Assembly (NCBI GenBank): GCA_024695235.1
Contig: JAILIP010000009.1
Coordinates: 55,647 to 119,646, forward strand
DNA: 64,000 nucleotides
Direction: 5' to 3'
Origin: Bacilli bacterium
GTDB lineage: Bacteria; Bacillota_I; Bacilli_A; RFN20; CAG-826
Part shown: positions 27,196 through 54,582 of the stretch, piece after piece
How the letters are laid out: each line of letters begins with the position of its first letter
How positions within the stretch are numbered: the stretch's first letter is position 1
Translations under genes and position numbers: made by a program
Notes under the pieces: model-generated
The model's database searches: none
Seen by the model: only the letters and a program-made list of their open reading frames with translations
What the model was told of the DNA's origin: nothing

Positions 27196-27882
27196 ATGAA
27201 AAAATCAAAAATCGTCGTCCCAGCCGTTGCATTATTAGCTCTTGGTTTGGCCGCTTCTACAACTGCTACAGTTGCATGGTTCCAAGCAACATCAGCAGCT
27301 ACATTAACAGACAAATCAGCACCAGCAACAGTTAATGTTCAATCTTCTACTTATAGTGCAGGTGCATATTATGTTAAAGCAACTGCATCATTCTCACCAA
27401 GCGCAGCTCTTGATTATACTGATAAGAATGGCTCCACTTGGGTAATCGTTAATGGTTATTTAAGAACAGCCGCAGTTAAAAGTGCAAAATACGCATCAGT
27501 TACAATTGCAGTAAACTTCTATTCGAACGAAGCTTGTACACAAGCTGCTACTGTATCCGAACTCGCTGAAATTGGCGCCGCATTTAGTGGTTTAACAGTT
27601 ACAATCAACCCAGATGCAAACACAAGATTAACAACCAGTGATCCAAGTAGCAATTTTGCTACAGCTTTCGCTTCTAAATTGGATGTTAGTGATACGGTCA
27701 ATGTTACCTTAAGCTCTGCCGGCGCAGCTTCATATTCGAATAATACCCATTATGTCTCAGTTAATGGCGATGGTACAAGTGAAGTTGCAGATGCTCACGT
27801 TGATGGCGAAGCCGCCGCATCAGAATACACTACAGATGGCGGACTTACATTAACAATCGCTTCTACAGCAAGATCTGCTTAA
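27196..27882 (+). CDS. Small secreted Ala/Ser/Thr-rich protein with a SipW-cognate-like signal peptide; candidate major fibre subunit
   Basis: 228 aa. The sequence runs MKKSK, then a hydrophobic helix, then TATVAWFQATS. The mature part is A/S/T/V-rich with beta-strand-like alternation. SD AGAAAGGA lies upstream. The gene is monocistronic, with its own promoter and a strong terminator. Confidence 0.6.
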   Translation: MKKSKIVVPAVALLALGLAASTTATVAWFQATSAATLTDKSAPATVNVQSSTYSAGAYYVKATASFSPSAALDYTDKNGSTWVIVNGYLRTAAVKSAKYASVTIAVNFYSNEACTQAATVSELAEIGAAFSGLTVTINPDANTRLTTSDPSSNFATAFASKLDVSDTVNVTLSSAGAASYSNNTHYVSVNGDGTSEVADAHVDGEAAASEYTTDGGLTLTIASTARSA

Positions 27883-27906
27883 TTTATAATCTTTATAAAG
27901 ATTTAG

Positions 27907-27929
27907 GGCACACTATGTGTGCCTTTTTT
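27907..27929 (+). terminator. Intrinsic terminator after the 27196 gene
   Basis: GGCACAC-tat-GTGTGCC followed by T6. Confidence 0.8.
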
Positions 27930-28032
27930 AAAAGAAAGCAAATTATTTGGTTTCTACAATCTGACTTCGAGCAAAAACTTTTTGCATTTTCACACATATG
28001 TTACTATTATTAAAGGTGCGTATAGGTGGATT

Positions 28033-28407
28033 ATGAAACCATTAACAAAAAAGATTTTGATTTATAGTGGCCTTTCACTCGACATTATTGTCACTGTGTT
28101 TTTGTTTGTTTTATCAATCATAATGTTGGCCACAATGCCAGAAACATATCCTGGATTTGATATGAAAATGTATTATGAAAGCCATCCTGGTTTCATAACT
28201 TATTTGCAGGCAAATCCTACAGTATACTTATTAGCATGCGTCTTGCCTCTTGTTATTCTTTTGATTGGCAATATATTTTTACTTATTTTATTCATTAATA
28301 AAGCCGGAAAGAAAAAAGCGGCGTTGTCAGATTTATCAGAGGATCAAAAGGCTGCCCTTCGTGCTGAAATCCTTAAAGAAATGGATTCACCAGAAGAAAA
28401 GAAATAA
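28033..28407 (+). CDS. Small two-TM membrane protein with a charged C-terminal tail, unknown function
   Basis: Start at ATG 28033 (MKPLTKKILIYSG...), preceded by AGGTGG. It has two hydrophobic segments and the tail LSEDQKAALRAEILKEMDSPEEKK. Confidence 0.55.
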   Translation: MKPLTKKILIYSGLSLDIIVTVFLFVLSIIMLATMPETYPGFDMKMYYESHPGFITYLQANPTVYLLACVLPLVILLIGNIFLLILFINKAGKKKAALSDLSEDQKAALRAEILKEMDSPEEKK

Positions 28408-28426
28408 GTGTCTTAGTAGTTTGAAT

Positions 28427-28450
28427 GCGAGCTCATACGGGCTCGCTTTT
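28427..28450 (+). terminator. Intrinsic terminator after the 28033 gene
   Basis: GCGAGCTC-atac-GGGCTCGC (8 bp, one G:T pair) followed by TTTT. Confidence 0.7.
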
Positions 28451-28485
28451 AATTTTCATGAACTTTAGTTCATAAATATTGGTGT

Positions 28486-28515
28486 TTGAATACACGCATA
28501 TATACGTGATATATT
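28486..28515 (+). promoter_or_regulatory. Promoter TTGAAT-N18-(TGa)TATATT driving riboswitch 1 and operon 1
   Basis: -35 at 28486-28491 and an extended -10 TGATATATT at 28507-28515. The predicted start site lies at approximately 28522, at the 5' edge of the aptamer. Confidence 0.5.
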
Positions 28516-28521
28516 TAAATT

Positions 28522-28645
28522 AGCAAAAAGCAAAACCACAGTGATGTGGCGACGCAAAACTAAAGGGTCTTAATTAAGATAGCCAGTTGCCTAGAGGTTC
28601 TTATTGAACGCCACTAAATGGATGATAGGTAGCTGGCTTTTAAAA
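28522..28645 (+). promoter_or_regulatory. c-di-GMP-I (GEMM-I)-like riboswitch 1, aptamer plus terminator-type expression platform
   Basis: GCAAAACCACA-GUGA-UGUGGCGACGCAAAACUAAAGGGUCUUAAUUAAGAUAGCCAGUUGCC (28530-28591) has these features: a GNRA-capped hairpin, a GACGCAAA junction, a second hairpin with a CUAAAG/GAUAGCC receptor-like loop, and an AGCCAG-UUGCC closing. The 3' half (28581-28593) can instead pair with 28626-28638 in a 13-bp stem followed by UUUU. Confidence 0.7.
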
Positions 28646-28700
28646 AGAAATCTCATTGGGACAATAATAATCTAATACTAAACACTGGAAAGATTTTCTT

Positions 28701-29480
28701 ATGGTCGATTTAAGCTTTATTAGGAAACGTAAAGCTAAGAAAATCGTTGCACTAGTTGGCGGGTTATGTGGCGCTGCAGTAGTAGTTGTATCTGCTGTTG
28801 CCCTTTTGGGCCAAAGAGCCGCACCTTTAACTGTCAAGCTTACTAACAGTGGTGCATCATTAGCATTATTCAAGTCTGAATTCGAAAACGATCGTAAATC
28901 ATTCTTACTCGCTACTGATAGCAAACCATATACTGAAATAAGCGAACCCGCTTTACGCGCATATGAGAGCGTACTAGACGTGGATGATTCAAAACCTCTC
29001 CTCACATCGGATGAGCAATCACTCCAATTCTATCAATACACTTTCTATCTCACGAATAGTGGCGCAAGTGCAGCTGATTACACATTCAGCTTAAACATTT
29101 CCTATCCACACAGATCCAGCTTTGACTTAGCTGATGTTTTGCGTGTGCGCTTTTATGAGAATGACGGAAACGATAAGTTGACTCATAACTACAAGACTTA
29201 TGCCAAACACTCGGATATATATAATGCCGAAACAGGTGAATATGAACCTGAACGCATTTCTGGTAGTCAAAGTGAATTTGCTGAGAAGTTTGAAAATGCA
29301 AACACAGTTCTCACTCAAAACGTATCCGCTTTCCCTGCAGGAGCAGTCACACGTTACACAGTTGTCGTGTGGATTGAAGGTGAAGACCCACAAAGTAAAG
29401 GTCCAGCTCCAGTGGACTCTGGTATTGCTCTAGGAGTAAACATTAGTGCCCATGAAGCAGAGGAGACACCTCTCGAATAA
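28701..29480 (+). CDS. N-terminally TM-anchored or secreted beta-rich protein, TasA/camelysin-like candidate (paralogue group, WIEGEDP motif)
   Basis: 259 aa. A basic N-terminus is followed by the TM helix IVALVGGLCGAAVVVVSAVALLG, but with no AW[FY] motif. LTNSGAS occurs twice, like the N-G-S strand motif recalled from TasA. The C-terminal VVVWIEGEDP resembles VFVEGWDEH and QYIEGWDRD in the next two ORFs. Confidence 0.45.
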   Translation: MVDLSFIRKRKAKKIVALVGGLCGAAVVVVSAVALLGQRAAPLTVKLTNSGASLALFKSEFENDRKSFLLATDSKPYTEISEPALRAYESVLDVDDSKPLLTSDEQSLQFYQYTFYLTNSGASAADYTFSLNISYPHRSSFDLADVLRVRFYENDGNDKLTHNYKTYAKHSDIYNAETGEYEPERISGSQSEFAEKFENANTVLTQNVSAFPAGAVTRYTVVVWIEGEDPQSKGPAPVDSGIALGVNISAHEAEETPLE

Positions 29481-30495
29481 ATTATCTGCAACGCTTGCAG
29501 CGTCTATATTAGCCGTAGCACTCACAGGAGTTACCTGTGGGACTTTTGCTTGGTTTACGTACGAGACGCGCGCAAAGATTGAAGAATTTCAAGGAATTAC
29601 TATTGGAGTCGGTGATTTGCAAGTGGGTATTCTGTCAGAAGCATATTTAGATAGAGCTGAAGAATATGGTTTGATTAGAGATGAAAGTAATCCTAACGAA
29701 ACAATTTACTGGTTTGATGGTCATACCATGGAGAATGAAACAATTAACTATGTTTTAAGTTCAAACGGTTATGCCACAAATGCTTTGCATCCAGTAACTT
29801 CGCGTAAATATGTGACTGGTGATCCTCTCACCCTATATGCTGCTCCTGATTTTAAACCCGAAGAAGATGCCAAAGCATCAAAAGATGGTAGAATATTCTT
29901 GCCGTTAGTTTTTAAATACGAAGACATCATTGATGATAGTTTGATTTCAAATGAAAACATATTCCTGTCTGATGTAAAACTTTCAACGCCAAGCAGCGAT
30001 AGTTACATCCACAGGGCAGTTCGTGTTCATACGGATAACAAAAATAACAATCGTCATTTGATTAACCCAACAACAAGCGAAGATGGTTCTACTGGTGTTG
30101 GTGGTGTCTTAGATTTAAATAAAGACGGTTTTTATGATACCGAGGTTACAGGTAGCGACCTCCGAGAACATGTATATGGGCAAGCCGAGTTCCAATACAA
30201 AACTGAAGTAGAAACAGAGGACACTTTTGTTCCTATTGAACAAAGAACAACATTCAAAGCCGGGCATCTAGCAGGTGCCTATTCACTTGAATCGTGTACT
30301 CCTGAAAAAGCAGAGTATGAAGGTTTTTATGGCTTTAGGAATAAACGCAAATGGGTTGCAACTACAAATCCAGAGACGAACAACTATGCTTATCTAGACC
30401 TATCTGTATTTGTTGAAGGATGGGATGAACACGTCATCGATTCTGAACGAGATTTACCATTTTCCATGGAGTTGAAATTTGAAGTAGTATTCTAA
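29446..30495 (+). CDS. Secreted protein with a SipW-cognate-like signal peptide (paralogue A, DxNxDG loop, EGWD motif)
   Basis: The GTG at 29446 lies 9 nt after AGGAG; an alternative ATG is at 29452. The N-terminus is ...LAVALTGVTCGTFAWFTYETRA. It has GGVLDLNKDGFYD and ends with FVEGWDEH...SMELKFEVVF. Confidence 0.55.
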   Translation: MPMKQRRHLSNKLSATLAASILAVALTGVTCGTFAWFTYETRAKIEEFQGITIGVGDLQVGILSEAYLDRAEEYGLIRDESNPNETIYWFDGHTMENETINYVLSSNGYATNALHPVTSRKYVTGDPLTLYAAPDFKPEEDAKASKDGRIFLPLVFKYEDIIDDSLISNENIFLSDVKLSTPSSDSYIHRAVRVHTDNKNNNRHLINPTTSEDGSTGVGGVLDLNKDGFYDTEVTGSDLREHVYGQAEFQYKTEVETEDTFVPIEQRTTFKAGHLAGAYSLESCTPEKAEYEGFYGFRNKRKWVATTNPETNNYAYLDLSVFVEGWDEHVIDSERDLPFSMELKFEVVF

Positions 30496-30496
30496 A

Positions 30497-31561
30497 ATGA
30501 ATAAAAAACGTTTAGCAGCATTTGGAATAGCAATAACGGGTGTGATGTTAGTAGCATCTGTGGCTTTTACTGTTGCTTGGTACAATGGTTCATCTAATTT
30601 AGCAGTCTATAACTTCGACATTTCTCTAGGTGACAAGAAACTTACTATTTCCACAGATAATGTGAATTTCAAAGAAAACTTAACTAGAGATGATGTCAAA
30701 GACGCTATCCCGGAAAAATACAGGCCTGTTAGCAGTGCCTTCTCCAATGAATGGATAAGTCAAAAAGCAACCCTTCCGCAATTTACATCTGGTTACAACT
30801 ACATACCAGAAAAGGTGAATATGACATCAATTGATGATGTCAACAACGCTGATGATGGTGTATTCAGAAAAGTGTTATATCTCAAAAGTGATTCTTATGC
30901 AAAAGTATCTTTAGATGCAGAGAAAACTTACATTAACGCAGATAATGATTCAAATGAAAGCATTTCAGGAAAACTCAAAAAGGTATATCCAAACTTAACC
31001 AAAGAACAAATTGTGGAACAACTTAACAAAATTGAGAATTCACTTCGCTTCTCAATCCTTGTCTTAAATGATGATGGAAAAGAAGTTGATGATAGTGAAT
31101 ATCAATACACGATCGTGGATCCACATAAAAATGGAACCACAAAATTAGGTGGCATCTTGGATGCAGATGGCGACGGTTATTACGATAACGTCAATGGTAA
31201 AGAAGTCATTTATGGCGAAGTTAAAAACGCAAATGATGGAACCATCTCATATAAGAATGCTGAAGCAAACGATGTAGGGGAATCAGAGAATTGTTTTGAT
31301 TCCAAACATAAAGCCGGCGTCCAAGCCTTAGATTTTGAATCTTCAGAATCAAAAGGTATGGAAATAGTCGAAGAACACTCTTTATCCTTAGAGGAACTTA
31401 GTCAGTTCACCTTTACACTTCAGGCTGATGTCTCTAAGAAGATAGTGTTGTCCCAATATATTGAGGGTTGGGATAGAGATAGTGATAATTACACAATGTT
31501 TTCCCGTTTTGTCACTAGTATTTGTTTCAAACTAGCAGACGGGGGGAATGGAGGCAACTAA
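30497..31561 (+). CDS. Secreted protein with a SipW-cognate-like signal peptide (paralogue B, DxDxDG loop, EGWD motif)
   Basis: MNKKRLAAFGIAITGVMLVASVAFTVAWYNGSS, with GGILDADGDGYYD and YIEGWDRDSDNY...ICFKLAD. Its length and motif order match the 29446 ORF. Confidence 0.55.
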   Translation: MNKKRLAAFGIAITGVMLVASVAFTVAWYNGSSNLAVYNFDISLGDKKLTISTDNVNFKENLTRDDVKDAIPEKYRPVSSAFSNEWISQKATLPQFTSGYNYIPEKVNMTSIDDVNNADDGVFRKVLYLKSDSYAKVSLDAEKTYINADNDSNESISGKLKKVYPNLTKEQIVEQLNKIENSLRFSILVLNDDGKEVDDSEYQYTIVDPHKNGTTKLGGILDADGDGYYDNVNGKEVIYGEVKNANDGTISYKNAEANDVGESENCFDSKHKAGVQALDFESSESKGMEIVEEHSLSLEELSQFTFTLQADVSKKIVLSQYIEGWDRDSDNYTMFSRFVTSICFKLADGGNGGN

Positions 31562-31564
31562 AAT

Positions 31565-33091: not shown

Positions 33092-33095
33092 TTAA

Positions 33096-35021: not shown

Positions 35022-35026
35022 ATTAT

Positions 35027-35794
35027 ATGAGTGAGGAAAAATTAGAAGTAGTCGATAAACCAAAAAAAGACAAAAGCAAAGGTAAGAAGATTAAATCCAT
35101 TGTTGAATGGACCATTATTGGAATCTTCATTAGTGCTGCGTTAGTCTTGGTAGGTTTTAAGATTTACTCAAGCAAGACAAACAAGTCAATGTTTGGTTCA
35201 CAATATCCAGTCGTTCTTACTGACTCAATGGAACCAGACTACAAGGTTAAAGACGTATTGGTAGTAAAAGAAGTTGATCCCGCAGTACTTAAAGAAGGCG
35301 ATGATGTTACCTTCTATTGGGATTTAACTGGTAAAGGTGATGTTTATCCGATGACCCATAGGGTCAAGTCCATTGAATACTTCGCAAATGCCGAAGAAAA
35401 CGATGGATATCACTATACAATCATCACTCATGGTATCAATACCAAATCAAACCAATGTGGTAAGCCTGAAGGATGCGACATGACGTGGCAAACTCAAACA
35501 TTTCACGAAGATGCCCTCATTGGAAAAGTGGTTAGAAAAAGTTGGTTCTTGAAATTTGTTACTTCTGTTTGGGGATTGATTCTTTTAATTCTTCTGCCGT
35601 GTCTATACATCATGACTACAACTGTTGTAGATGCGTTCAAGAAGCTTGAAGAAGCCGATAAAGAAGCAGAACTTACTACTGTGGGCGTTGGAGAAAAACC
35701 AGATAATGATCCACTTGCAGGACTATCTGAAAATGATATTGAAGCCCTTAAGAAACAGATGCTTGATGAGATGTTAAATAAAGGAAAGAAATAG
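35027..35794 (+). CDS. SipW-like (archaeal/ER-type, S26B) signal peptidase I
   Basis: It has an N-terminal TM segment, the catalytic Ser box VVLTDSMEP, the His box PMTHRV, and a C-terminal TM segment (VWGLILLILLPCLYIMTTTVV). This is the same architecture as B. subtilis SipW as recalled (LSGSMEP/THRI), plus N- and C-terminal charged extensions. Confidence 0.75.
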   Translation: MSEEKLEVVDKPKKDKSKGKKIKSIVEWTIIGIFISAALVLVGFKIYSSKTNKSMFGSQYPVVLTDSMEPDYKVKDVLVVKEVDPAVLKEGDDVTFYWDLTGKGDVYPMTHRVKSIEYFANAEENDGYHYTIITHGINTKSNQCGKPEGCDMTWQTQTFHEDALIGKVVRKSWFLKFVTSVWGLILLILLPCLYIMTTTVVDAFKKLEEADKEAELTTVGVGEKPDNDPLAGLSENDIEALKKQMLDEMLNKGKK

Positions 35795-35795
35795 T

Positions 35796-37331: not shown

Positions 37332-38077
37332 TTTTAATCATTGGAACAAATCATGATGATGTTCTTTACTATGAAAGCATTCTTTCATCTCCTAAAGAAG
37401 AAGTTATCCTAGATAAGTATCACGCACTCGTTGGAACAATCGCTTCTCAAGAAACAATGGTCCTTCAAGATGTGTATACATCATACTTATCAGGAATACT
37501 TGCAACATATATCATCAATCATTACTTCATTTCTTTAATCATCAATGTCGGTAGATGTGAAGCTATCTCTGATTCACTTAAAGTAGGGGATATAGTGCTC
37601 TCTGAATCTATTGTCTTTGGTGATGTCGATCAAATTGCCTCTTTGAAAGGTACGACCCTCGGTCAAATTCCTGGATATCCTCGTTCATTTGCGGTTCCAA
37701 ATAACCTAACTAGGAACTTATATACTTCTTTAGAGAAGATTGTTGATAAACGATTTGTTTTAGCAACATTTGTTTCCTCCTCGTTCTTTAGACAAAGCAA
37801 AGAAAGAGTAGGAGAAATTTCTAAGGATGAATATATTAACTCTCTAAATCAAAATATTGTCCTCGATGGAGAAAGTGCTGGCATCGCTTTAGTGAGTCAA
37901 CTCACACATGTTCCATTCATTGCTGTTAAAGTGGTGGAAGCTAAGGCTGGCAATTATACTTCCTTAGAAGATTACTTACTTGTTTTAGATGAGTATGCAC
38001 CTCTAGGCAAAGCTGTATCAAACTTCATTGGTGAGATTTCTCGTACTGATATTTTAAGAATAGGAGGTAAGTTCTAA
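37328..38077 (+). CDS. Divergent MTA/SAH-nucleosidase-fold (PNP_UDP_1) protein
   Basis: It is collinear with Pfs/MtnN (MILIIGTNHDDV, IINVG..., LKVGDIVLSE, GQIPGYP, LDGESAG, VPFIAVK), but several canonical residues are substituted: EME becomes DGE and RAISD becomes KVVEA. Confidence 0.55.
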   Translation: MILIIGTNHDDVLYYESILSSPKEEVILDKYHALVGTIASQETMVLQDVYTSYLSGILATYIINHYFISLIINVGRCEAISDSLKVGDIVLSESIVFGDVDQIASLKGTTLGQIPGYPRSFAVPNNLTRNLYTSLEKIVDKRFVLATFVSSSFFRQSKERVGEISKDEYINSLNQNIVLDGESAGIALVSQLTHVPFIAVKVVEAKAGNYTSLEDYLLVLDEYAPLGKAVSNFIGEISRTDILRIGGKF

Positions 38078-41000: not shown

Positions 41001-41124
41001 CGTCTTTGAAGGTTACGATTGCGGAGTTCAAGGTGACTATTACTTCAAGCCAATGGATGAAGTAAAAGCCTTTGAAGTTATTAGAACTCGTAACATGAAA
41101 GACAAAGATAATCTTGATAACTAA
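38077..41124 (+). CDS. Large membrane-anchored protein with degenerate GGDEF and degenerate EAL domains (candidate c-di-GMP receptor)
   Basis: 1015 aa with two closely spaced N-terminal TM segments and a Cys motif PCYKALYGLNKPCKNCP. The GGDEF-like segment ILLLKVKNIKDV...VYQFNSSTLALILHD has no GGDEF. The EAL-like C-terminus has substituted motifs: GVEITPN for EAL, FEVSED, VYDYEGN for DDFGTG, IKFSK for KIDK, TGVES and QGDYYFKP. Confidence 0.55.
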   Translation: MAKKEVMSLKSYSKKALLTIILLFLMVLILTGGVIASIYLVLNQLLQILICSFLVLGILIALFYIVFIGKRLYDLFYKQGIEITTHNIQALSNFDKSFDYYEEDEYKELKDLNTTFKDIAKNVGGRTIISQGLAHQEVPLKYDDEAKHFVNESSLIKNMHSLIIASESYRNALIDISYNLGKETIEEKSVSRIYNTIKENLSYEHVLISFKENKQGFVVYVPAFDSINQLKEELEYIIKDISLVKKGGTTKRAVVAHVSVAIYPYSSIDNLVKDLSKARKEKKVLNIYIPERTFEFNNKLLFSSMNINNTTKLIEDVSSIVPDPKLYASNLTRIKKCIDNTSNYYGFDAAGYLGYDKDNEKYINVYSFTSKDEVIFKDSVDISKKFIQTLNAVKDSDSSYYFSSRKHINNRLALYVDQYRIRSGLFYILSRDDKPFGVLYFLNRHKDLSFDAYMKESLITSCHVLGSVLEKMDARRNVNVADKRLSEILKISGMTLYSVNKANYEIVRYSQSLLRLFPSFDPSMPCYKALYGLNKPCKNCPLKQKRHMISEINSHKYEVYPVFANKYDPTAHLLIQPQKGDDVSERFDDETLLSSFASFRTDLSNQLLSNVSGKILLLKVKNIKDVISSVKNGGYVTLIKEFSDRVLTHYVDFADVYQFNSSTLALILHDKSDEDIVSICQEICDIVQSEKVDDTHLSFMYLVKNYSANDTNDALQKTLLDALDKYKDENEDEIVFVDTEYKRSASLDGYLLEQLLSSFGEKTYDMEFTPLLSNNTRLVYGVEITPNIVDRNVNKRLDISKAIEVAHNKGFGDIYSDGMLLYLDDLISRYTYTFFMSTDISCMSLKVDHNFINQDRFIEHLKEIYSKHQLPKGFIAFEVSEDDVYEHEKEYKEIVRKAAQIGVNFIVYDYEGNKYTVASLGELGFKEIKFSKKILSSINDRDSYNQTTYMWLEAIKQQMKVNFTGVESRKSSEAIVFEGYDCGVQGDYYFKPMDEVKAFEVIRTRNMKDKDNLDN

Positions 41125-41144
41125 TTTAAATGATTATCTGAATG

Positions 41145-41167
41145 AGTAGGCTTATTGCCTACTTTTT
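41145..41167 (+). terminator. Intrinsic terminator ending operon 1
   Basis: AGTAGGC-ttatt-GCCTACT followed by TTTTT. Confidence 0.8.
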
Positions 41168-41279
41168 CGTATAAAGTTAATAATTTATCAAAAAGATATT
41201 TATTTAATTAAATTTCATAAATTAAATATATCAAAGATATATTTGAATGTGCATACATACTTATACGAGCAATATATAC

Positions 41280-41308
41280 TTGTATTGTGTGCGCATAGTA
41301 TATAAAAT
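41280..41308 (+). promoter_or_regulatory. Promoter TTGTAT-N17-TAAAAT driving riboswitch 2 and operon 2
   Basis: -35 at 41280-41285 and -10 at 41303-41308. The predicted start site lies approximately 10 nt upstream of the aptamer. Confidence 0.45.
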
Positions 41309-41324
41309 ATACTTGAACTTGATA

Positions 41325-41412
41325 AAGGCAAAACTACAGTGATGTAGTGACGCAAAGCTAAAGGGTCTTGATTAAGATAGCCAGTTGCCAATAATGGTGA
41401 CTGGCTTTTAAA
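41325..41412 (+). promoter_or_regulatory. c-di-GMP-I (GEMM-I)-like riboswitch 2, aptamer plus terminator-type expression platform
   Basis: GGCAAAACUACA-GUGA-UGUAGUGACGCAAAGCUAAAGGGUCUUGAUUAAGAUAGCCAGUUGCC (41327-41389). GGCAA/UUGCC closes P1. 57 of 63 positions are identical to copy 1, with one compensatory C-G to U-A change in the GNRA hairpin. 41379-41390 can alternatively pair with 41395-41406 (12 bp, loop AUAA) followed by UUUU. Confidence 0.75.
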
Positions 41413-41437
41413 AATATCAGTCAAGAAAGGTAAGCTA

Positions 41438-44400
41438 ATGAATCGTTTCCAAAAAAGAATAATGATCATCGCTGCAGCAATCTGCAATGTTTCGCTTACC
41501 CTTACAGCAGCTGGTGTTGCAACATATGCTTGGTTTAAAGCTAAAGCAAATCTTGTAGCCGTTTCAAATAATCTCTCAATCAGTGTTGCCGACCCTGATG
41601 AAAAATTTGAATATGACATTTATAAATATGATGATAACCTTAAGGCTGGCAAAAAATTTACTGATCCTAGTGATTTTACCTTGCCTGATTATGATACATA
41701 CATCACCGAGAAAAACGTTTACGCGAACTGCATCATACGCGCTGAAGTCACAGTCCCCTCATTAAATACATCCGATGAGTATTTCACCATTGATGTCACA
41801 AGACTTGCTTCAAACTACTTCATTACAAGTACAACAAAGGTTGATAAAAAGACATCTAATGTTATTCAATTAAAATCTGCTGTCTATTCTTTCTTAGAAA
41901 GTGGCGAAACCGATTTTACAGAAAACACTAATATGATTGGACACGGAGATATTGACGAAACCTCTCCTGCGACAATCTATTCAACTGTCAGTGACTATTT
42001 TGCCACTAAACAAACTCCAACAACATTCGTTCCTATTAGATATGATGATAATGGTAATCCTATTGTTAATCGTGGAGATGACGAGAACAAAAGAACCATT
42101 ACCCTTATTCCAGACTTACCTACAGGTTATACAATCACAAAGGTAATTATCTATCTCGAATGTTCTTATCACGAAGATTTAGTTGATAAGTATGTTGAGT
42201 CTAATTCTACAGATTCTGCTGCAACAAAATATGCACTTCAAGGCGATGTTTCGTCAATTGTTTTTTCACATAAAGAAAAAGTTGCAAAAACATCACAAGC
42301 AACTGGTAAATACATTAAGGTAGAATCTACTGCTGCTTTAGCTAACGGTCAGTATTTGCACGCGTACGAGACGGATGAATCCACAGGCGCCGCAAAACTT
42401 ATGAAGGGTAGTTTAGCAACCAGTGATAAAGCTGCTACCAACCCATCCGGAATCTTTGTAGCAGATAACATTAGAGATGCAACGATAAACTCACTACCAT
42501 CCAACGAGCCAAAATCAATTGACACCACCGACGCCATTGATAGTGATGCATTTGCTTACACTAAAAAGAGTGGTGAAAATTCTATAAATACATTTAAGTC
42601 AAAAGCTGGTTACTACATTGGTAACGATACCCAATCTAATGGTATTGCGACTAACGATGACTATGCCAATGGTTACAAACACCAAATTACTTTCAGTGGA
42701 GATCATGCAAACGTTGATGCTTATGGTACTGGCTCAAACAACATGAGATTAGGATACTATACATCTGGAAATGGCAGATTCTATTATCAAAAGGATTCTG
42801 GAAAACAAACAGACCTGTTTAGATATACCGAAAACGTTGCAGAAATGCCCACATTAACCGGTATAGAAATTACAACTGCAACAACTGCCACCTCATTCTA
42901 CACATCACAAAAATTTGCTATTACTAATTTAGTTGTAACAGCCACCTATTCCAATGACTCATCTGCAATAGTTACGAAGTCATGTACTTTCACTTCAGAT
43001 ACCGATCCAGCTACACTAGTGCCTGGCACTACTACTTTGAGCACTGTGACCCAATCAAAGAATATTTATGTCAGTTATTCTGAAGGCGGAGTAACGATTA
43101 ATGGTGAAGGTGTAGCTGCTTTAACATACACAATTAGTGTTGCTCAAGATGAACTAAATTCAATTTCTGCAACTGCTCCAACCAAATCTTATTATTTTGT
43201 CAATGAAGAGTTTTCATCAGCAGGCATGACTGTTACCGCTCATTATAAATCTGGCAATCCTGTCAACATTGAATTAAATAATCCTAATTTAACAATTACT
43301 GCTCCTAGCATGTCATCAGTTAGTGATCCATCTGTTAATGTCTCATATACTGATGGAGTTACAAAATCTACTACTGTTACAATTCACATTGTCGCAAGGT
43401 ACTTAAGCATCAATAAGAACAGTGCATCTGTTGCAGAGGGCGGAGATGTAACAATCACTGTAGATCATAATCAGGATGTCACAATCACAAATACTCCTGG
43501 AACTGGAACTGTTTCCTTAAATCCTAGTTCAATTGAGTACACAGGAACAAATAAGGCTAGAACAACCACTGATGTAACGGTTCATGGCGAGACAGCTGGC
43601 ACCGTAACTCTCACATTTTCTTCCAGTGGATGTTCACCTGTTTCATGCAATATTACTGTTACCGCTACACCTGCTGATGTGATTACTATGACCGCAGATG
43701 AAGTCATCACCGATTCGGGTTATAAGGCATATGCTACAAACATTTCAAAGGATTACAATGGTACAGGAAGTGAATCAAAAGGATGGCTTGTAACATTTGG
43801 CGGAAATAACTACACATTTGGTACAAATAATAATGCTACCAATTTTGATAATTGTAATTTGTCTTCGTATGACAAGTATGCTGTCAGTACAGTGGCAACT
43901 ACTTCAGAAACCGCTGCTGCGTTTGCAAATACGAGCGTGATGCACAAGATTAGGAATATCTCGTTCACATGTACTGGTGGTACAAATTTGAACACAACAA
44001 CCGCATATATAATCTATTCTGCTGATAATATTACTTTTTCAAAACCAACATTAGCTTCCGGTTCTACATCACAAGGTACTACTGTGACTTCTGGAACAAC
44101 GTATACCTTTAAATTTAATTCGGCATTGGCCGGATATTTTGCGATTGTATTTAAATCAAGTCTTTCTAGCGTTGGCAACTGGAAGATAGAGGGCCTATCT
44201 GTAACTTACAACCCTAAAGCTCTTGATCATATCGCTATCACTGGAGATGTTTCGAATAAATCTTACACAAGTGGACAATCGTTAAATATGTCAGGTTTAG
44301 TTGTTACAGCGTATTACACAGATAATACAAACGAAGTTGTAACAGGAAGTGCAACATTAACCTCTTCTGTAGATCCATTAACCACTGGTACTACATCAGT

Positions 44401-45220
44401 TACTGTTACTGCTTCTTACACATTCGGCAGCTCTACAGAGACGGCGACTAAGAGCGTTACTGGTTTAACAGTTACAGCACCGTCGACGCTAATAACTGCA
44501 ATTACTTTAACTGCTGCAAGTTCATCAATTGTAGCTGGGAATACTACAACAGTTACAATTGGAATTACACCAAGCAGCGCTTCGTCACAAAATATTACAG
44601 TCACTTTAACTGCTGGCGGCGGAACATATGGTAGATTTGATAATTCGACCGGCAGCACAACAACAAAAGATGTTCAATGTAGTAGTGGTTCTGGCTCGTT
44701 TACTGTTTATGGTGTTGCAGCTGGTTCATTCAAACTTCAAGCTGCAGCAAATGATGGATCTAGTATAACTTCCAATCAAATCACTATTACAGTTACCGCT
44801 CCATCCAGTATTACATTCACAACTAATAGATCTAATCTATCGCCAACTTGGTCTTCCTCTGGTACGTATACCGTTACTTCAAGCGGTGAGACTATAACGT
44901 TTAGTAATTTGACTGCATCCAGCAATAGTGATATTCAAATGGCAAAGAATTCCACAGCAACTAGTACTGAATTCTCAGGAAATATTTCTCAAATCATATT
45001 GTATGGTTGTGCACATACAGGTTCTAAGAGCGATGGTTCATTTACTGTTAGCGGTAGTGCGAATGGATCGTCGTGGACAGAGGTGTACTCAATTTCAAAT
45101 ATGAGTCCTTCTCAAGGAAACATCACTATTTCAGTTTCTTCGGGGTATAAGTATTTTAAAGTTACAGTTGGCAGCTCACGTGTCCTTAAGATTACTGGAA
45201 TTAAGGTTACATATTCATAA
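41438..45220 (+). CDS. Giant secreted adhesin-like protein with a SipW-cognate-like signal peptide, Ig-like repeats and two jelly-roll/CBM-like modules
   Basis: 1260 aa, N-terminus MNRFQKRIMIIAAAICNVSLTLTAAGVATYAWFKAKANL. It has repeated Ig-like units of the type L(T/D).I.(I/A)T...K.(Y/F)....(F/L)...G(L/M).VTA.Y and Big_2-like units (SASVAEGGDVTITV; IVAGNTTTVTIGITPSSAS). It has no LPXTG, no C-terminal TM segment and no lipobox. SD AAAGG lies upstream. Confidence 0.75.
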   Translation: MNRFQKRIMIIAAAICNVSLTLTAAGVATYAWFKAKANLVAVSNNLSISVADPDEKFEYDIYKYDDNLKAGKKFTDPSDFTLPDYDTYITEKNVYANCIIRAEVTVPSLNTSDEYFTIDVTRLASNYFITSTTKVDKKTSNVIQLKSAVYSFLESGETDFTENTNMIGHGDIDETSPATIYSTVSDYFATKQTPTTFVPIRYDDNGNPIVNRGDDENKRTITLIPDLPTGYTITKVIIYLECSYHEDLVDKYVESNSTDSAATKYALQGDVSSIVFSHKEKVAKTSQATGKYIKVESTAALANGQYLHAYETDESTGAAKLMKGSLATSDKAATNPSGIFVADNIRDATINSLPSNEPKSIDTTDAIDSDAFAYTKKSGENSINTFKSKAGYYIGNDTQSNGIATNDDYANGYKHQITFSGDHANVDAYGTGSNNMRLGYYTSGNGRFYYQKDSGKQTDLFRYTENVAEMPTLTGIEITTATTATSFYTSQKFAITNLVVTATYSNDSSAIVTKSCTFTSDTDPATLVPGTTTLSTVTQSKNIYVSYSEGGVTINGEGVAALTYTISVAQDELNSISATAPTKSYYFVNEEFSSAGMTVTAHYKSGNPVNIELNNPNLTITAPSMSSVSDPSVNVSYTDGVTKSTTVTIHIVARYLSINKNSASVAEGGDVTITVDHNQDVTITNTPGTGTVSLNPSSIEYTGTNKARTTTDVTVHGETAGTVTLTFSSSGCSPVSCNITVTATPADVITMTADEVITDSGYKAYATNISKDYNGTGSESKGWLVTFGGNNYTFGTNNNATNFDNCNLSSYDKYAVSTVATTSETAAAFANTSVMHKIRNISFTCTGGTNLNTTTAYIIYSADNITFSKPTLASGSTSQGTTVTSGTTYTFKFNSALAGYFAIVFKSSLSSVGNWKIEGLSVTYNPKALDHIAITGDVSNKSYTSGQSLNMSGLVVTAYYTDNTNEVVTGSATLTSSVDPLTTGTTSVTVTASYTFGSSTETATKSVTGLTVTAPSTLITAITLTAASSSIVAGNTTTVTIGITPSSASSQNITVTLTAGGGTYGRFDNSTGSTTTKDVQCSSGSGSFTVYGVAAGSFKLQAAANDGSSITSNQITITVTAPSSITFTTNRSNLSPTWSSSGTYTVTSSGETITFSNLTASSNSDIQMAKNSTATSTEFSGNISQIILYGCAHTGSKSDGSFTVSGSANGSSWTEVYSISNMSPSQGNITISVSSGYKYFKVTVGSSRVLKITGIKVTYS

Positions 45221-45231
45221 AAGGAGAAAAG

Positions 45232-48200
45232 ATGTTTAAGTTTTTGAAGCAACACAAATTCACAATCTTACTCACAGCATTAAATGCTCTCCTTTTAAGT
45301 GCGGCTGTTATCGGAACTGTCGCTTGGTATTCAATCAAAATGGAGATTGATCCACCTACTGGTACAACTCAAACAAGTGGTATTTTAAAATCATATTTTG
45401 ATTCTGGAAGTGGTACCCAGGGTGATCCTTATGTAATCACAAGGCCTATTCATTTTTATCACCTATCATATCTTCAAAATTCTGATTATTTCGGGGATAG
45501 CACAAAATATTTCCGTTTTGGGAAAAACATTGATGGCGACGCTAATGGAGAATATGAATTCTACAATTATGGTGATGATGGCAAACTTCTTGCTGGAACT
45601 TCAAAAGAATTAAATGTTAAGTATTACAGTGGCACAAATGCCTTATATCCAATCGGCACGCCTCAACATCCATTTAAATCAGTTATCTATGGAACAAACC
45701 TTACTGTTAAAAATGTACACATCAAAGGTGATGGTTTAGCAGATATAGGTGTCTTTGGATATGTTCACGAAGATGCTGAAATACATAACTTGTATTTTGA
45801 TACAGTATCTATTGATACAGGAACGCCTACATCATCTAATGGTACTCACTCCCACACAAGTGGAAAATACAACGTTGGCTACTTAGCCGGTCATATACAA
45901 TCTAGTGATTCTTTTGACAATGTCTATGTGAATAAATGCGAAATTTACAATAGTGGCATCCCTAACATCCAAGGTTTAACTGAATATGGATATTTTGGTA
46001 AATGCGATTCTATTGAGACACCTTTAACTACATCGAGTACAGATGAATATAGAATTGATCCAGCTACTGTCCAAGGATATTTCAAAGACAACTGGACATC
46101 TGGCAAGCAATTGTCTAGTAAGTCTGTCACCACAAGAAACACAGAGTATACTGTGAAAGGAACAGATTTCACATCTGTAGTTAATAGTAGCGATAATAAC
46201 CATAATGCAAGTACATCTTACACAATGAAAGGTACGGCATCGAGTGTTCCGCACAATTATTCATTATCTACTATTGGCCATCAGGGTGAAGAAACCAGTT
46301 ATGAGATTTCATACTCCAGCAGTCACTTGAATATGGACGTAAGTACCACCGTTATTCCGGATGGAGTAAATATTAATACTATTACAGAACCAGGTTCTTA
46401 CATGTATTGGGATACATCCGCTTCAAAATGGGTATATTATGTCATTTCTCCAGGTGGCTCAACATCTTCTAAAACCTTTAACGTTTTCTCATTGTCCTAT
46501 CAATATAACGGCAATACGTACTATGTTTATGTTAGTGGCAATGTTACTGAAAGCAATGGTGTAAAAAATTACTCAGGATTGTCACTTGCTGTTTCTTCTA
46601 CAGTGCCATCGATTAGCAATAGACGTTATTGGTTCTCTTTGAGATCGTCAAACACCGATTATGGTATAACATCAATTGCTACTAATTCTGGCGCTGAACG
46701 CTACTATTTATTCTGTCCAGATGTTGATGCTTATGCCTATATTACAAGCAACACAACAATTAATTTCGGCAATTATTCAACTGTGAAGGACTTATCGGGC
46801 ACAGGATCATCTAAGACATTCACTTTTGATGGTGTTGATACAAAGATTGAATGGGTCGGTTCTAGTAATACGAACTATGGTTTCCAAGCAACATCATCCT
46901 CTATTACAGCAATAAGACCTGTTAGTGGAAATGATGCAACTATTTTCGCACTTAATGGTACAGGTGCTCGCACTTCGGAAAGCTCATCTGATACAGATAA
47001 GTATCAATTGGTTACGGATACATCTCAGTTGAAGAATAATCAAGAATACTCTATCGGCTATGATGCTGGTGATTTGCACAGGTTGATTGGCGAGCAAAGA
47101 ACTAATAATAGAACCGCAGTTACAGTAACTGTCGATTCTGGAACAACTTTAAATTCTGCATCTGGTGTTAGAAAATTTACTTTGGGTGTCGATGATGAAA
47201 CAATAACTGGGTCAACTGTATATTCGTTCTTTGACCAAGCAGAATATACTGGTAATGGTGGCTATTTGTATGCGGCATCATCATCGCATAACTACTTAAG
47301 AACTCAACAAACAAACAATTTAAACGGATTATGGTCGATAACTTTTGGCAGTGGCGGAGCAGCAACAGTAACAGCACAAGGTAGTAACTCTCGAAACCTA
47401 CTTAGATACAATTCGTCAGATGATTTGTTTGCATCTTATGGTCAAGGTCAGAAACTAGTTAAAATCTATAAATATATTGCCGGGTCTGGAACTATCCAAA
47501 CCGCAAATCATGCGGAATTGATTGCAACCGTAGAAGATGGAACTGATGTCGATCCAGTACCGTATGATGCATTTTATGATGCTGATACAACCGGTGGAAC
47601 AAACTATCAATCCATTACTTTTACTCGTGAACGCATTACATGGGATTTTACAAATCATTTAATAACCATTTCCCCACAATCCAACCAACATTATGAAAGA
47701 ATAACATCAATTGACGATCTTTCAGATGGTGAATATTTAATTGTTACAGAATCAGGCGGGAAGGCTCTTAATGGTCAAGGAAGTGGTGGCGCGAGCGCAT
47801 CTGTCACAATAACCAACCATACTATTCCTTACAATGAAACAACAACAGGGTATGCTTTTACATTGGATTCTGAGAATGGAAGATTCCTGGCAAAAGACAG
47901 CTACTATATATATAGTGCTGGCAGTGGTACAAGCATGTCTTATACTCAAACAGAATCAGACCTAGTTAACCACTCGATTTCTTTTGATGGTAACAATGTT
48001 GTAATTAAATCGCCAAACAATAATAGAAAATTGGCTTACTATTCATCAGGACCTAATTTTAGATACTATGCTTCGATTGGCAGTGGCCAAGAAGTTCAAT
48101 TGTACAAACTTATTAGTGAAACAACCGAACCTGAATATATTGCTGATACAATAGCTACTTTGGATAACAAATATAATAAAGATAAAATTGATGCTGTTGG

Positions 48201-49122
48201 TACAGTAACCTATTCATCTTCATCGATGACATTTGCATCAAATCTTAGCAATATCAAAGCAGTTAGTAAATGGAATACAGAAAATAGTGAGCTTGGTATT
48301 GGTGCCAAATTCTATCAAACAAGATACTTATCTAATTCCTTAGTGTTATTTGTCCCTAACCAAGGTGCATTAGATTTCGGAACAATTCATTTGGAATCAA
48401 CTGGAACAGCCCCTGTATTTGTGAAAGGATCAGATAATGGCATAACTAATTTTGAACCATCAATTGGATTTACTGATGCGAGAATCGGCTGTACTGATGA
48501 TTTGGTGGGAGACAGCAACCATAGTTATACTTTAAGTCTTAACATGCATAATATATTCAACCTATGTTATGCAGCATTAGATTCGGATGGTAAAATACTT
48601 GCATCATATGATACTGATGGCGCTAAAGTGCTTCCTGCAACCGCAATCAATCCATCTAATATTGCAACATTTGTACTAGCAATAAGTGTTCCTTCTTCAT
48701 CAATGTCTGTTTCAGCAATCAACTTAAAGATTCGTCATCTTGAAGGCGAAATGGCGAACTTCAGTAATGTTGGTTATAGAAACGCAACGTACACTTCTGG
48801 TGCTACGATTGTTGATTCAATCGTAACAGACAATGTCAATACAACCACAAGTACTATCGCAAGAGAAGCTATTGATTTTAGAATTGATAGTGGTTCTAAT
48901 TCTAATAAGATCTTCTTTAGAATGATGTATAATGCTACGACGAAAACGTACGATATTACATTCAAATGCACGTCGAACACACACATACTAATCTTTAATT
49001 TTGATGCTGAAAGAGTAAAACTGTATTTGAACGATTCGCAATTAACTGAATCTTATCATGATGAAACTGTGTCAGGAACAGCTTGGACGTATCCAGTAGC
49101 ACTTCCGTCAAACTATAGTTAA
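45232..49122 (+). CDS. Giant secreted protein with a SipW-cognate-like signal peptide, a beta-helix/GLUG-like region and two copies of a recurrent approximately 160-aa module
   Basis: 1296 aa, N-terminus MFKFLKQHKFTILLTALNALLLSAAVIGTVAWYSIKME. It has IGVFGYVHEDAEIHNLYF (GLUG-like). It has no C-terminal anchor. A strong SD AAAGGAG lies upstream, 11 nt after the upstream stop. Confidence 0.75.
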   Translation: MFKFLKQHKFTILLTALNALLLSAAVIGTVAWYSIKMEIDPPTGTTQTSGILKSYFDSGSGTQGDPYVITRPIHFYHLSYLQNSDYFGDSTKYFRFGKNIDGDANGEYEFYNYGDDGKLLAGTSKELNVKYYSGTNALYPIGTPQHPFKSVIYGTNLTVKNVHIKGDGLADIGVFGYVHEDAEIHNLYFDTVSIDTGTPTSSNGTHSHTSGKYNVGYLAGHIQSSDSFDNVYVNKCEIYNSGIPNIQGLTEYGYFGKCDSIETPLTTSSTDEYRIDPATVQGYFKDNWTSGKQLSSKSVTTRNTEYTVKGTDFTSVVNSSDNNHNASTSYTMKGTASSVPHNYSLSTIGHQGEETSYEISYSSSHLNMDVSTTVIPDGVNINTITEPGSYMYWDTSASKWVYYVISPGGSTSSKTFNVFSLSYQYNGNTYYVYVSGNVTESNGVKNYSGLSLAVSSTVPSISNRRYWFSLRSSNTDYGITSIATNSGAERYYLFCPDVDAYAYITSNTTINFGNYSTVKDLSGTGSSKTFTFDGVDTKIEWVGSSNTNYGFQATSSSITAIRPVSGNDATIFALNGTGARTSESSSDTDKYQLVTDTSQLKNNQEYSIGYDAGDLHRLIGEQRTNNRTAVTVTVDSGTTLNSASGVRKFTLGVDDETITGSTVYSFFDQAEYTGNGGYLYAASSSHNYLRTQQTNNLNGLWSITFGSGGAATVTAQGSNSRNLLRYNSSDDLFASYGQGQKLVKIYKYIAGSGTIQTANHAELIATVEDGTDVDPVPYDAFYDADTTGGTNYQSITFTRERITWDFTNHLITISPQSNQHYERITSIDDLSDGEYLIVTESGGKALNGQGSGGASASVTITNHTIPYNETTTGYAFTLDSENGRFLAKDSYYIYSAGSGTSMSYTQTESDLVNHSISFDGNNVVIKSPNNNRKLAYYSSGPNFRYYASIGSGQEVQLYKLISETTEPEYIADTIATLDNKYNKDKIDAVGTVTYSSSSMTFASNLSNIKAVSKWNTENSELGIGAKFYQTRYLSNSLVLFVPNQGALDFGTIHLESTGTAPVFVKGSDNGITNFEPSIGFTDARIGCTDDLVGDSNHSYTLSLNMHNIFNLCYAALDSDGKILASYDTDGAKVLPATAINPSNIATFVLAISVPSSSMSVSAINLKIRHLEGEMANFSNVGYRNATYTSGATIVDSIVTDNVNTTTSTIAREAIDFRIDSGSNSNKIFFRMMYNATTKTYDITFKCTSNTHILIFNFDAERVKLYLNDSQLTESYHDETVSGTAWTYPVALPSNYS

Positions 49123-49128: not shown

Positions 49129-49154
49129 AGCACGTTCAAAATAACGTGCTTTTT
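49129..49154 (+). terminator. Intrinsic terminator ending operon 2
   Basis: AGCACGTT-caaaat-AACGTGCT followed by TTTT. Confidence 0.8.
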
Positions 49155-50741: not shown

Positions 50742-51401
50742 CTATTCTCCAGTATGATCTGTAATAACAAACCAGATAGCTTTGAAGATAATCTTTAGGT
50801 CTGTTTTAACTGATCTTGTTTGGATGTATTTAATATCTAGTTCAACCCATTCATCGAAACTCATTTGGTGTCTATTGTGGGTTATTTGCCATAAGCAGAT
50901 GACTCCACCTTTAACTTTGAGTCTATTCATTTGATATGGGGTGTATTCAGCAACTTCTTCTGGAAGTGGTGATCTAGGACCAACGATTGAAAGTCTCCCC
51001 ATTAAGATATCCCATATTTGTGGTAATTCATCTAATGATGTCTTTCTTAGGAATTTACCAAATTTGGTAATACGTGGGTCATCTTTCATCTTGAAGACAG
51101 GACCATCAGCTTCGTTTTTGCCTTGCTTGATGAGTTCTTCTTTCATTTGCTCGGCGTTTGGTTTCATAGAACGAATCTTATGGAACTTGATGATCTTTCC
51201 ATCTTTACCAACACGATCAGAAGCGTATATTGGGCGATGTCCATCTTCACAGAACTTAATGAACATCAATATCAATAGCACCCAACCAAATAGTAAAAAG
51301 AACATTATAGATGCAAAAATATCAAATGCTCTTTTAATAAAGAGATAGAATTTTCCACCGGCAGGTTGTATATCTTGATTTTTACTAATTTCGTTTGTCA
51401 T
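50742..51401 (-). CDS. Priming phosphoglycosyl transferase (bacterial sugar transferase family, WbaP/EpsL-like)
   Basis: 219 aa with KRAFDIFASI, then a TM segment, then KFHKIRSM, DDPRITKFGKFLRKTSLDELPQ and SIVGPRSP. Confidence 0.85.
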   Translation of the reverse strand: MTNEISKNQDIQPAGGKFYLFIKRAFDIFASIMFFLLFGWVLLILMFIKFCEDGHRPIYASDRVGKDGKIIKFHKIRSMKPNAEQMKEELIKQGKNEADGPVFKMKDDPRITKFGKFLRKTSLDELPQIWDILMGRLSIVGPRSPLPEEVAEYTPYQMNRLKVKGGVICLWQITHNRHQMSFDEWVELDIKYIQTRSVKTDLKIIFKAIWFVITDHTGE

Positions 51402-54567: not shown

Positions 54568-54582
54568 CTAGTGGAGGTTTAT

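Follow-up and report, generated by a model that had tools for sequence, protein, structure and literature searches.

A two-gene unit for two giant proteins without an anchor

The stretch of DNA analysed here, called the window, covers 64,000 nucleotides (nt) of a Bacilli bacterium genome (positions 55,647 to 119,646 of contig JAILIP010000009.1, assembly GCA_024695235.1; G+C content about 35%), and all coordinates below are counted from its first letter. Our subject is a pair of genes in it, G1 and G2, whose products an earlier note had described as giant proteins without an anchor that might be adhesins carried on a fibre. Both open reading frames (ORFs) exist exactly as that note had placed them. 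G1 (41438..45220, plus strand) encodes 1260 amino acids (aa) and G2 (45232..49122, plus strand) encodes 1296, with a gap of 11 nt between the two genes. G1 consists of a signal peptide, a family-specific N-terminal domain (N-domain) and a beta-trefoil, followed by immunoglobulin-like (Ig-like) and beta-sandwich modules, while G2 belongs to a conserved orphan family of proteins of about 1285 aa. The 5' boundary of the unit is a terminator-like hairpin (41144..41164, plus strand; 8-bp stem and then a T-run) that ends the upstream gene for a 1015-aa EAL-type protein, and a bidirectional terminator-like hairpin (49129..49150, no strand assigned) closes the unit downstream. Two minus-strand ORFs at the G1 locus (41215-41619 and 44416-44658) were dismissed as mechanical.

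Each protein has a single hydrophobic segment, within residues 7-35. Motif and hydrophobicity scans of G1 and G2 found neither an LPXTG-type sorting signal nor a lipobox, and no further hydrophobic or C-terminal transmembrane segment, in agreement with the earlier description of both proteins as anchorless. Neither ends in the LPXTG motif, hydrophobic stretch and charged tail that together mark a sortase-anchored adhesin, and no credible sorting signal was found anywhere in the 64-kb window.

A c-di-GMP riboswitch in the leader of G1

The 5' leader of G1 contains a c-di-GMP-I aptamer (c-di-GMP, cyclic diguanosine monophosphate) of the GEMM-I clan (41318..41393, plus strand). It matches the full-length RF03167 model with 60.7 bits (E 3.8e-14), above the gathering score of 59, and ends 44 nt before the G1 start codon. 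Overlapping its 3' end is an expression platform (41379..41408, plus strand) made up of a 12-bp terminator hairpin (41379-41404) and UUUU, with a folding energy of -19.1 kcal/mol and a z-score of -5.8, so that both elements expected of a c-di-GMP-I-regulated operon, an aptamer above its gathering score and a platform, are found in the leader. Because AGCCAGUUGCC, the 5' arm of the terminator, is also the 3' arm of the aptamer, the arrangement predicts that the riboswitch is probably an ON switch.

Each of the seven related loci scanned has a c-di-GMP-I aptamer immediately before its G1-like gene, in six of them as a match to RF01051, and the aptamer and terminator overlap in 11 of 12 related riboswitch copies. 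The window holds a second c-di-GMP-I riboswitch (28519..28594, plus strand; RF01051, 57.7 bits) between a gene for a small membrane protein (27919-28407) and gene 28701. It precedes the genes that run from 28701 to the SipW-like peptidase described below, and it is kept, with the same terminator overlap, in three related loci (L003, L048 and L050). Its position implies that these genes are co-regulated with G1 and G2. A further Rfam match, to mir-297, was dismissed as chance.

Adhesins under c-di-GMP riboswitch control are known in Bacillus thuringiensis and Clostridioides difficile, where they are sortase-anchored (PMC4933901, PMC6447587). As in the genes for B. thuringiensis Cap/CbpA and C. 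difficile CD2831, whose expression is tied to high c-di-GMP, a GEMM-type aptamer and a terminator platform lie in the 5' leader of a gene for a large candidate surface adhesin (PMC4933901, PMC7423583, PMC6447587). Those proteins carry LPXTG and collagen-binding domains; in G1 and G2 a sorting signal is lacking, and both begin with a predicted SipW-type signal peptide.

N-terminal motifs and a SipW-like peptidase

The only hydrophobic segment of each protein closes with an AW(F/Y) motif at residues 29-33, TYAWF in G1 and TVAWY in G2, just as the earlier note had reported for both N-termini. Among the 154 window ORFs of at least 60 aa, [TS]xAW[FY] occurs in five, namely G1, G2 and three small proteins (27196, 29446 and 30497, designated like other window genes by start position). 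In all five it lies within residues 25-37, at the end of the N-terminal hydrophobic segment, and this restriction argues that the motif is not a product of chance. The presumed processing enzyme is a SipW/archaeal-type signal peptidase I encoded at 35027..35794 (plus strand). It matches TIGR02228 (E 1.9e-11) and the SipW model NF046067 (E 3.9e-11) and has conserved LTDSME and MTHR motifs.

With this peptidase as its anchor, a metagenome scan yielded 43 related loci (numbered L001 and so on), and in many of them two or three T-x-A-W-F/Y proteins adjoin the peptidase gene. Two of the loci, L032 and L033, are classical cases: beside the SipW gene, their proteins with GTTFAWFTD pass TIGR04088 (cognate_SipW; 25.3 and 30.9 bits, curated cutoff 19 bits) as well as Pfam Peptidase_M73/camelysin, which argues that T-x-A-W-F/Y is a SipW-type cleavage region. 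The 27196 protein scored 12.4 bits against TIGR04088, below the cutoff, and weak matches were found in 2 of 34 members of the G1 family (best E 0.018). In the cleavage region of TasA, GGGTWA/AF, T stands at -3 and A at -1, following the -3/-1 rule. G1 and G2 have the arrangement of accepted TIGR04088 members, T-x-A and then an aromatic-F pair at the hydrophobic end, and a SipW/archaeal-type signal peptidase I gene lies in their neighbourhood. The motif, which the earlier note had taken as a mark of fibre proteins, is most simply read as a signal-peptidase cleavage site with T at -3 and A at -1 rather than as a 'fibre-type' sequence. By analogy, the SipW-like enzyme would cleave at A31/W32. The predicted signal peptides span residues 1-31 in both proteins, at 41438..41530 (plus strand) in G1, with cleavage at T29-Y30-A31 / W32-F33, and at 45232..45324 (plus strand) in G2, with T29-V30-A31 / W32-Y33. 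The motif stands near-universally at position 29 in the G1 family.

If the hydrophobic segment were instead left uncleaved, G1 and G2 would be type II membrane proteins held by residues 7-31. Such a signal anchor would fit the lack of any other anchor in G1 and G2, and AlphaFold2 draws a continuous helix through residues 3-41 of G1, across the motif. Uncleaved anchors do occur in the system, since proteins of the 28701 type carry a transmembrane segment without the motif, and oligomers of Clostridium perfringens BsaA are reported to be membrane-anchored (PMC11580942). However, AlphaFold routinely models signal peptides as helices, and a near-invariant T at -3 with A at -1, always equally far from the hydrophobic core, is what a signal-peptidase site looks like. 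TasA/camelysin-type proteins, which are known SipW substrates, carry this motif as well, and a dedicated peptidase gene is conserved in the locus. We regard a signal anchor as improbable.

The N-terminal domain of G1

Residues 32-285 of G1 (41531..42292, plus strand) belong to an unannotated family whose members also include stand-alone small secreted proteins. An exhaustive HMMER search with G1 residues 1-290 against 1.84 billion representative proteins returned 109 relatives; a word-indexed protein database gave one match with residues 1-290 and three with the family profile. About 45 of the 109 are proteins of 400-1725 aa, mostly longer than 1000, with the domain at their extreme N-terminus. 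About 50 are stand-alone secreted proteins of 230-320 aa that span the whole domain, and the rest are short, mainly fragments. The family alignment keeps TxAWF, YDxFIxxRN, ISNIIxFK, YxEYxYxxxLxD and a C-terminal IxFxxDI strand, and the stand-alone homologues end right after this strand. Judged from the family, residues 1-285 of G1 are a self-contained, 'subunit-sized' module that also exists alone. No stand-alone homologue was found within 10 kb of the 43 SipW-anchored loci.

AlphaFold2, run with the family alignment, produced a model with a predicted local distance difference test (pLDDT) score of 86.8 and a predicted template modelling (pTM) score of 0.79, in which the helix of residues 3-41 is followed by a beta-rich domain with three helices. 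A Foldseek search of this model against the PDB gave a best E of 4.7e-3 and template modelling (TM) scores below 0.25, with no TasA in the top 50 and no pilin-like relative, and a search of a viral library (BFVD) gave no credible match. The family profile found nothing among PDB sequences, and no Pfam or NCBIfam model covers the family (34 members scanned). Pfam Peptidase_M73 (PF12389) matched neither G1, G2 and the small proteins of the window nor the 34 family members, and the prepilin N_methyl motif (PF07963) was found in neither G1 nor G2. A TasA-like jellyroll was considered for the domain and is not supported; the model may represent a novel or very divergent beta-rich fold.

The earlier note had seen a motif in this region as reminiscent of the small paralogues. 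The motif, IIYLECSYHEDL, is present and proved to be the family hallmark YxEYxYxxxLxD, but the likeness to the small paralogues has no statistical support. In 29446 and 30497, the match to a hidden Markov model (HMM) of the family is limited to the signal peptide plus some 30 residues, and G2 does not match. When the family was compared by hhalign with two small-protein families from related loci, only the first 25-27 mature residues aligned (columns 1-27; E 0.002 and 0.02), at probabilities of 2-12%. A greedy alignment was colinear, with WF at the start and Y-x-E opposite EGWD near the end, at a probability of 2%. Beyond the signal peptide and some 25 mature residues, homology between the N-domain and the window's small proteins could not be shown, as neither the HMM nor hhalign gave significance. 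The proposal that the N-terminal domain is structurally like the small subunits is not supported either, given these hhalign probabilities and a model that matches no TasA or pilin in the PDB.

One related locus (L045, 574-4940) contains a distant small relative of the N-domain (344-385 aa, VLAWF) directly upstream of a 1068-aa G2-like protein (TLSWF). This arrangement suggests that an N-domain protein was paired with G2 before the N-domain became fused to giant stalks.

Beta-trefoil and Ig-like modules

Directly behind the N-domain, residues 287-475 of G1 (42296..42862, plus strand) are predicted from a structural model and Foldseek to form a lectin-like beta-trefoil module. The segment resembles residues 816-966 of G2 and part of the neighbouring 54571 protein, and an iterative search found the module right behind the N-domain in almost all long relatives, in one to four copies. 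The AlphaFold model of the module has a pLDDT of 88.5 and a pTM of 0.86. About 40 of its top 50 Foldseek matches were beta-trefoils, with lectins first (PPL, CCL2, SSA, MOA, BEL and RSA, of which PPL is an N-acetylgalactosamine-binding lectin), a top-match probability of 0.97-1.0 and target-normalised TM scores of 0.5-0.62. Pfam RicinB_lectin_2 matched 2 of 29 trefoil copies, weakly (E 0.015), and a profile of the module found nothing meaningful among PDB sequences. On the strength of the model we assign residues 287-475 to the beta-trefoil fold, as a predicted lectin-like module. Two beta-trefoil-like modules were found in G2 by jackhmmer, at residues 587-749 (46990..47478, plus strand; domain E 2.7e-15) and 820-963 (47689..48120, plus strand; domain E 1.3e-20). 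The beta-trefoil modules, one in G1 and two in G2, and the riboswitch are additions to the earlier note.

The 54571 gene (54571-57264, plus strand) encodes an 897-aa surface protein with an ordinary signal peptide and a C-terminal transmembrane anchor, and it has a beta-trefoil-like module (aa 40-197) and Ig-like repeats in common with G1 and G2, so that a single genome combines these binding modules with differing modes of anchoring.

The Ig-like units that the earlier note had recognised were borne out: Pfam Big_3 lies above its cutoff twice in G1, at residues 580-648 (43175..43381, plus strand; 23.8 bits, cutoff 21.2) and at residues 939-993 (44252..44416, plus strand; 30.4 and 25.2 bits), and Big_2 is on record for G1 orthologues. 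Where jelly-roll-like modules had been claimed, we found a C-terminal beta-sandwich core in G1 at residues 1182-1243 (44981..45166, plus strand) with weak matches to the galactose-binding-like F5/8 type C family (E 0.0027 and 0.0099), both below Pfam cutoffs, and the claim was not upheld. Between orthologues, the N-domain of G1 (51-59% identity) and both ends of G2 are best conserved, and the lectin and stalk regions least.

G2 and the question of enzymatic function

G2 has 16 full-length relatives of about 1285 aa that are 28-51% identical to it over 98-99% of the length. Neither G2 nor any of these relatives has a Pfam domain, and the family profile matched nothing in Pfam or among PDB sequences; searching the PDB sequences with G1 and G2 themselves likewise gave nothing meaningful. 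GLUG (PF07581) matched neither G2 nor 11 relatives. The GSGTxxDPYxI...PIG...PF...G...N motifs of G2 look GLUG-like by eye, and no tool confirmed the GLUG/beta-helix region that had been proposed there. No subunit-like domain was found in G2.

A composition of this kind raises the alternative that G1 and G2 are released freely as carbohydrate-active enzymes or substrate-binding scaffolds, aimed at plant fibre or other polysaccharide, without relation to a protein fibre and not retained on the cell. Lectin-like or carbohydrate-binding-module-like parts joined to Ig-like ones are typical of such proteins, the relatives come from rumen and gut metagenomes, and about 600 residues of G2 as well as parts of G1 have no assigned fold. 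However, no catalytic family was detected in G1 or in the 12 G2-family proteins scanned. The pair is also strictly linked to the SipW cluster and under c-di-GMP control, which argues for a role in sessility or the matrix rather than in nutrition, and we hold free release to be very unlikely.

Conserved linkage to the SipW cluster

The closest genome match is a rumen metagenome-assembled genome, uncultured Erysipelotrichaceae RUG14309, with 59% identity in the N-domain and its genes ordered as in the window. In all eight related loci with readable flanks, a G1-like and a G2-like gene are adjacent and linked to the SipW cluster. The pair lies downstream of the core cluster in the window and in L001, L003, L047 and L052; in L048-L050 it directly precedes the 27196-type gene, and in L053 it adjoins an inverted core. 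In three loci the small-subunit genes are its immediate neighbours. The G1-like partner ranges from 631 to 1518 aa. The recurring core consists of genes for a GGDEF protein, a small T-x-A-W-F protein, a small membrane protein, a transmembrane-anchored 28701-type protein, two 29446/30497-type proteins, an AAA_5 ATPase with N-terminal transmembrane segments, a protein of about 470-640 aa, the SipW-like peptidase, a GGDEF/EAL protein, a PNP_UDP-type protein and an EAL-type sensor of about 1015 aa. Flanking GGDEF/EAL genes accompany the cluster in the relatives as well as in the window.

The core corresponds in the window to a cluster of about 12 genes (27196-41124) that appears to be uncharacterised and is kept in L003, L005-L012, L019, L025, L028 and L048-L050, from rumen and human-gut metagenomes. 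It includes the AAA_5 ATPase (31565-33091), a protein of a 470-750 aa class (33096-35021) and two GGDEF/EAL proteins. No Pfam family covers its small proteins, which are encoded at 27196..31561 (plus strand); 27196, 29446 and 30497 have the same signal motif as G1 and G2, and 28701 is a transmembrane-anchored relative without it. The 28701 protein (28701-29480, plus strand; 259 aa) has an N-terminal transmembrane segment but lacks T-x-A-W-F. Towards the C-terminus, its 'WIEGEDP' region aligns with one small secreted family of the cluster (hhalign probability about 47%), and the other family has a similar EGWD by eye. The protein could be a membrane-anchored base for what the secreted paralogues build.

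Proteins of the 27196 type (27196-27882 in the window, 14150-14842 in L048 and 7173-7850 in L050) are 225-230 aa long and rich in Ala, Ser and Thr. They are 49% identical between species over the first 61-63 or so residues only, the remainder not being alignable by BLAST, while the L048 and L050 proteins, from closer relatives, are 65% identical from end to end. The same pattern, a conserved N-terminal segment before a body that evolves fast, is seen in pilin-like subunits. The 641-aa protein encoded at 33096-35021 (plus strand) ends in about 200 residues of K/P/E/A-rich low complexity with PKK/KKP/EPK repeats, and its orthologues in L001 (485 aa) and L003 (461 aa) have a shorter tail.

A comparable operon, sipW-bsaA-bsaB-bsaC of C. 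perfringens, encodes BsaC, a 70-kDa protein with a vWA domain, and there too a SipW operon has, beside its matrix subunits, a larger protein of adhesion type with a signal peptide (PMC11580942). The systems differ in that BsaC has a vWA domain and BsaA and BsaB are TasA-like, whereas the proteins here have trefoil and Ig-like modules and the small ones are not TasA-like. Secretion of BsaC needs type IV pilus proteins, genes for which were not seen adjoining G1 and G2. By comparison, the human-gut relatives of the window locus lack the G1-G2 pair, and some encode, at the equivalent position downstream of the gene for a 1013-aa sensor, an unrelated 598-aa protein with an N_methyl motif. The L005 protein (16955-18751) matches the N_methyl motif of type IV pilins (PF07963, 28 bits) and, weakly, a hyaluronate-lyase beta-sheet, and looks like a modular pilin.

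Further from the pair, the window contains rhamnose-synthesis genes (19964-23522), with a tRNA gene (19069-19141, plus strand; Rfam 64.9 bits) between a DinB-like gene and these. A sugar transferase-like ORF (50742-51401) and an O-antigen-ligase-like membrane ORF (51539-52978), both recognised by eye, lie downstream of G2.

Possible attachment to a fibre

The earlier note had proposed that both giants are fibre-borne. In its most specific form, cleaved G1 and G2 would be built into, or cap, a fibre of 27196, 29446 and 30497 by complementation through an N-terminal strand, as tip or decorating adhesins. What stands of this proposal is the synteny and co-regulation of the giants with the small-protein cluster, the N-termini that they have in common with the small proteins and their adhesin-type modules. 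Over its first 25 or so mature residues, the G1 family aligns with both small-protein families at the hhalign E-values given above, and conservation of 27196-type proteins between species is confined to the signal peptide and the first 34 or so mature residues. The N-domain of G1 is subunit-sized and exists in stand-alone proteins, and in L045 a small N-domain-like protein directly precedes the G2-like gene. There is also a precedent: TapA, whose fold is unlike that of TasA, may join a SipW-dependent fibre through its N-terminal strand alone, which it is proposed to donate to TasA (PMC9674648).

What does not stand is the structural kinship on which the proposal drew. The globular parts show no detectable relatedness, the N-domain model matches no TasA, pilin or other donor-strand subunit in the PDB, a subunit-like domain is lacking in G2, and none of the small proteins matches Peptidase_M73/TasA. 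The fibre itself is putative, and the shared N-terminal segment may merely be an extended recognition site of the peptidase. We consider strand-mediated incorporation of G1 and G2 into such a fibre possible, though rather unlikely.

Comparison with the Bacillus subtilis tapA-sipW-tasA operon shows both likenesses and differences. In both systems a signal peptidase of the endoplasmic reticulum/archaeal type is encoded beside its known or presumed substrates, with a T-x-A/aromatic-F cleavage motif common to both, the context is one of biofilm, and an accessory protein of different fold has only an N-terminal segment in common with the main subunit (PMC9674648). The differences are that no protein of the window matches Peptidase_M73/TasA and the model of the G1 N-domain is unlike TasA, that the cluster holds an AAA_5 ATPase with transmembrane segments, and that control is by c-di-GMP riboswitches, not by SinR. 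The accessory proteins differ in size as well: G1 and G2 are multi-module proteins of 1260-1296 aa, far larger than TapA, which has about 250 aa.

A variant of the fibre idea gives the N-domain itself the part of a subunit. The G1 family would then be a new class of SipW-type-dependent fibre subunit, with G1 loading exchangeable lectin and Ig cargo on a c-di-GMP-induced fibre and G2 as its obligatory partner; the fibre would be assembled by the small T-x-A-W-F/Y proteins, the transmembrane-anchored base protein and the membrane AAA_5 ATPase. Taken as a whole, we judge this reading unlikely. FimH-type adhesins and the modular type IV pilins PilB and PilC of Streptococcus sanguinis have a subunit-like module fused to a ligand-binding module, and stand-alone forms of the subunit exist. 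G1 resembles them in joining a subunit-like module to one of a ligand-binding type, with stand-alone versions of the former. Unlike these systems, it has no N_methyl/prepilin motif and no chaperone-usher genes, its module family is unrelated, and its polymerisation is hypothetical.

A model for the G1-G2 unit

We favour, with somewhat better than even confidence, the view that G1 and G2 form a two-gene unit switched by a c-di-GMP riboswitch, and that their products are exported through the SipW-type route and serve as glycan-binding adhesin or biofilm-matrix proteins. At high c-di-GMP, the aptamer would hold AGCCAGUUGCC and thereby block the terminator, so that both genes are transcribed. The proteins would be exported by Sec, and the SipW-like peptidase (35027-35794) would cut them after T-x-A, at A31/W32, as it would the neighbouring small proteins. 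G1 would be the variable partner, with a conserved N-module of the new family, a trefoil lectin-like module and a changeable stalk of Ig-like and beta-sandwich modules. G2 would be the conserved partner of about 1285 aa, with two predicted beta-trefoils and otherwise unrecognised folds. Outside the cell, both are predicted from their modules to bind glycans and to act in adhesion or the matrix; lectin-like beta-trefoils together with Ig-like units fit an adhesin, and G1 and G2 are probably biofilm or adhesion proteins. Their retention on the cell is most likely non-covalent. The mature N-terminal segment or the N-domain might dock on co-regulated products of the SipW cluster, or the lectin modules might bind the cell's own polysaccharide.

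Several observations weigh against this model. On the side of regulation, the best aptamer model in the window is the GGC variant RF03167, and by a narrow margin, where six of seven relatives match canonical RF01051. On the side of export, the peptidase scores below the equivalog cutoffs of both TIGR02228 and NF046067, and the N-termini of G1 and G2 give no TIGR04088 match even at E up to 10. As to function, the Foldseek E-values of the trefoil model are marginal (9e-3 and weaker), no sugar-binding motif was identified in the trefoil modules, all relatives, those of G2 included, are annotated as 'hypothetical' or unnamed, and the roughly 600 G2 residues without an assigned fold leave room for a catalytic domain.

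Erysipelotrichaceae-like Bacilli are common in rumen and human-gut samples, and almost nothing is known of how they attach to surfaces. In one testable unit, the locus unites two giant proteins bearing lectin-like modules with a riboswitch, a dedicated signal peptidase and small secreted proteins. SipW-dependent, c-di-GMP-induced matrix or adhesin proteins are of a known kind, to which this pair adds two unannotated families, the G1 N-domain with its 109 relatives and the G2 orphan family. If the giants do ride on a SipW-dependent fibre, donor-strand biology of the TasA type would extend to the display of adhesins. If, beyond that, they prove to be modular fibre subunits, theirs would be the first fibre-borne adhesin architecture for the SipW/TasA-like pathway and a Gram-positive counterpart of chaperone-usher tip adhesins. 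Even without a fibre, both families gain a context of c-di-GMP control, a probable export route and lectin-like modules.

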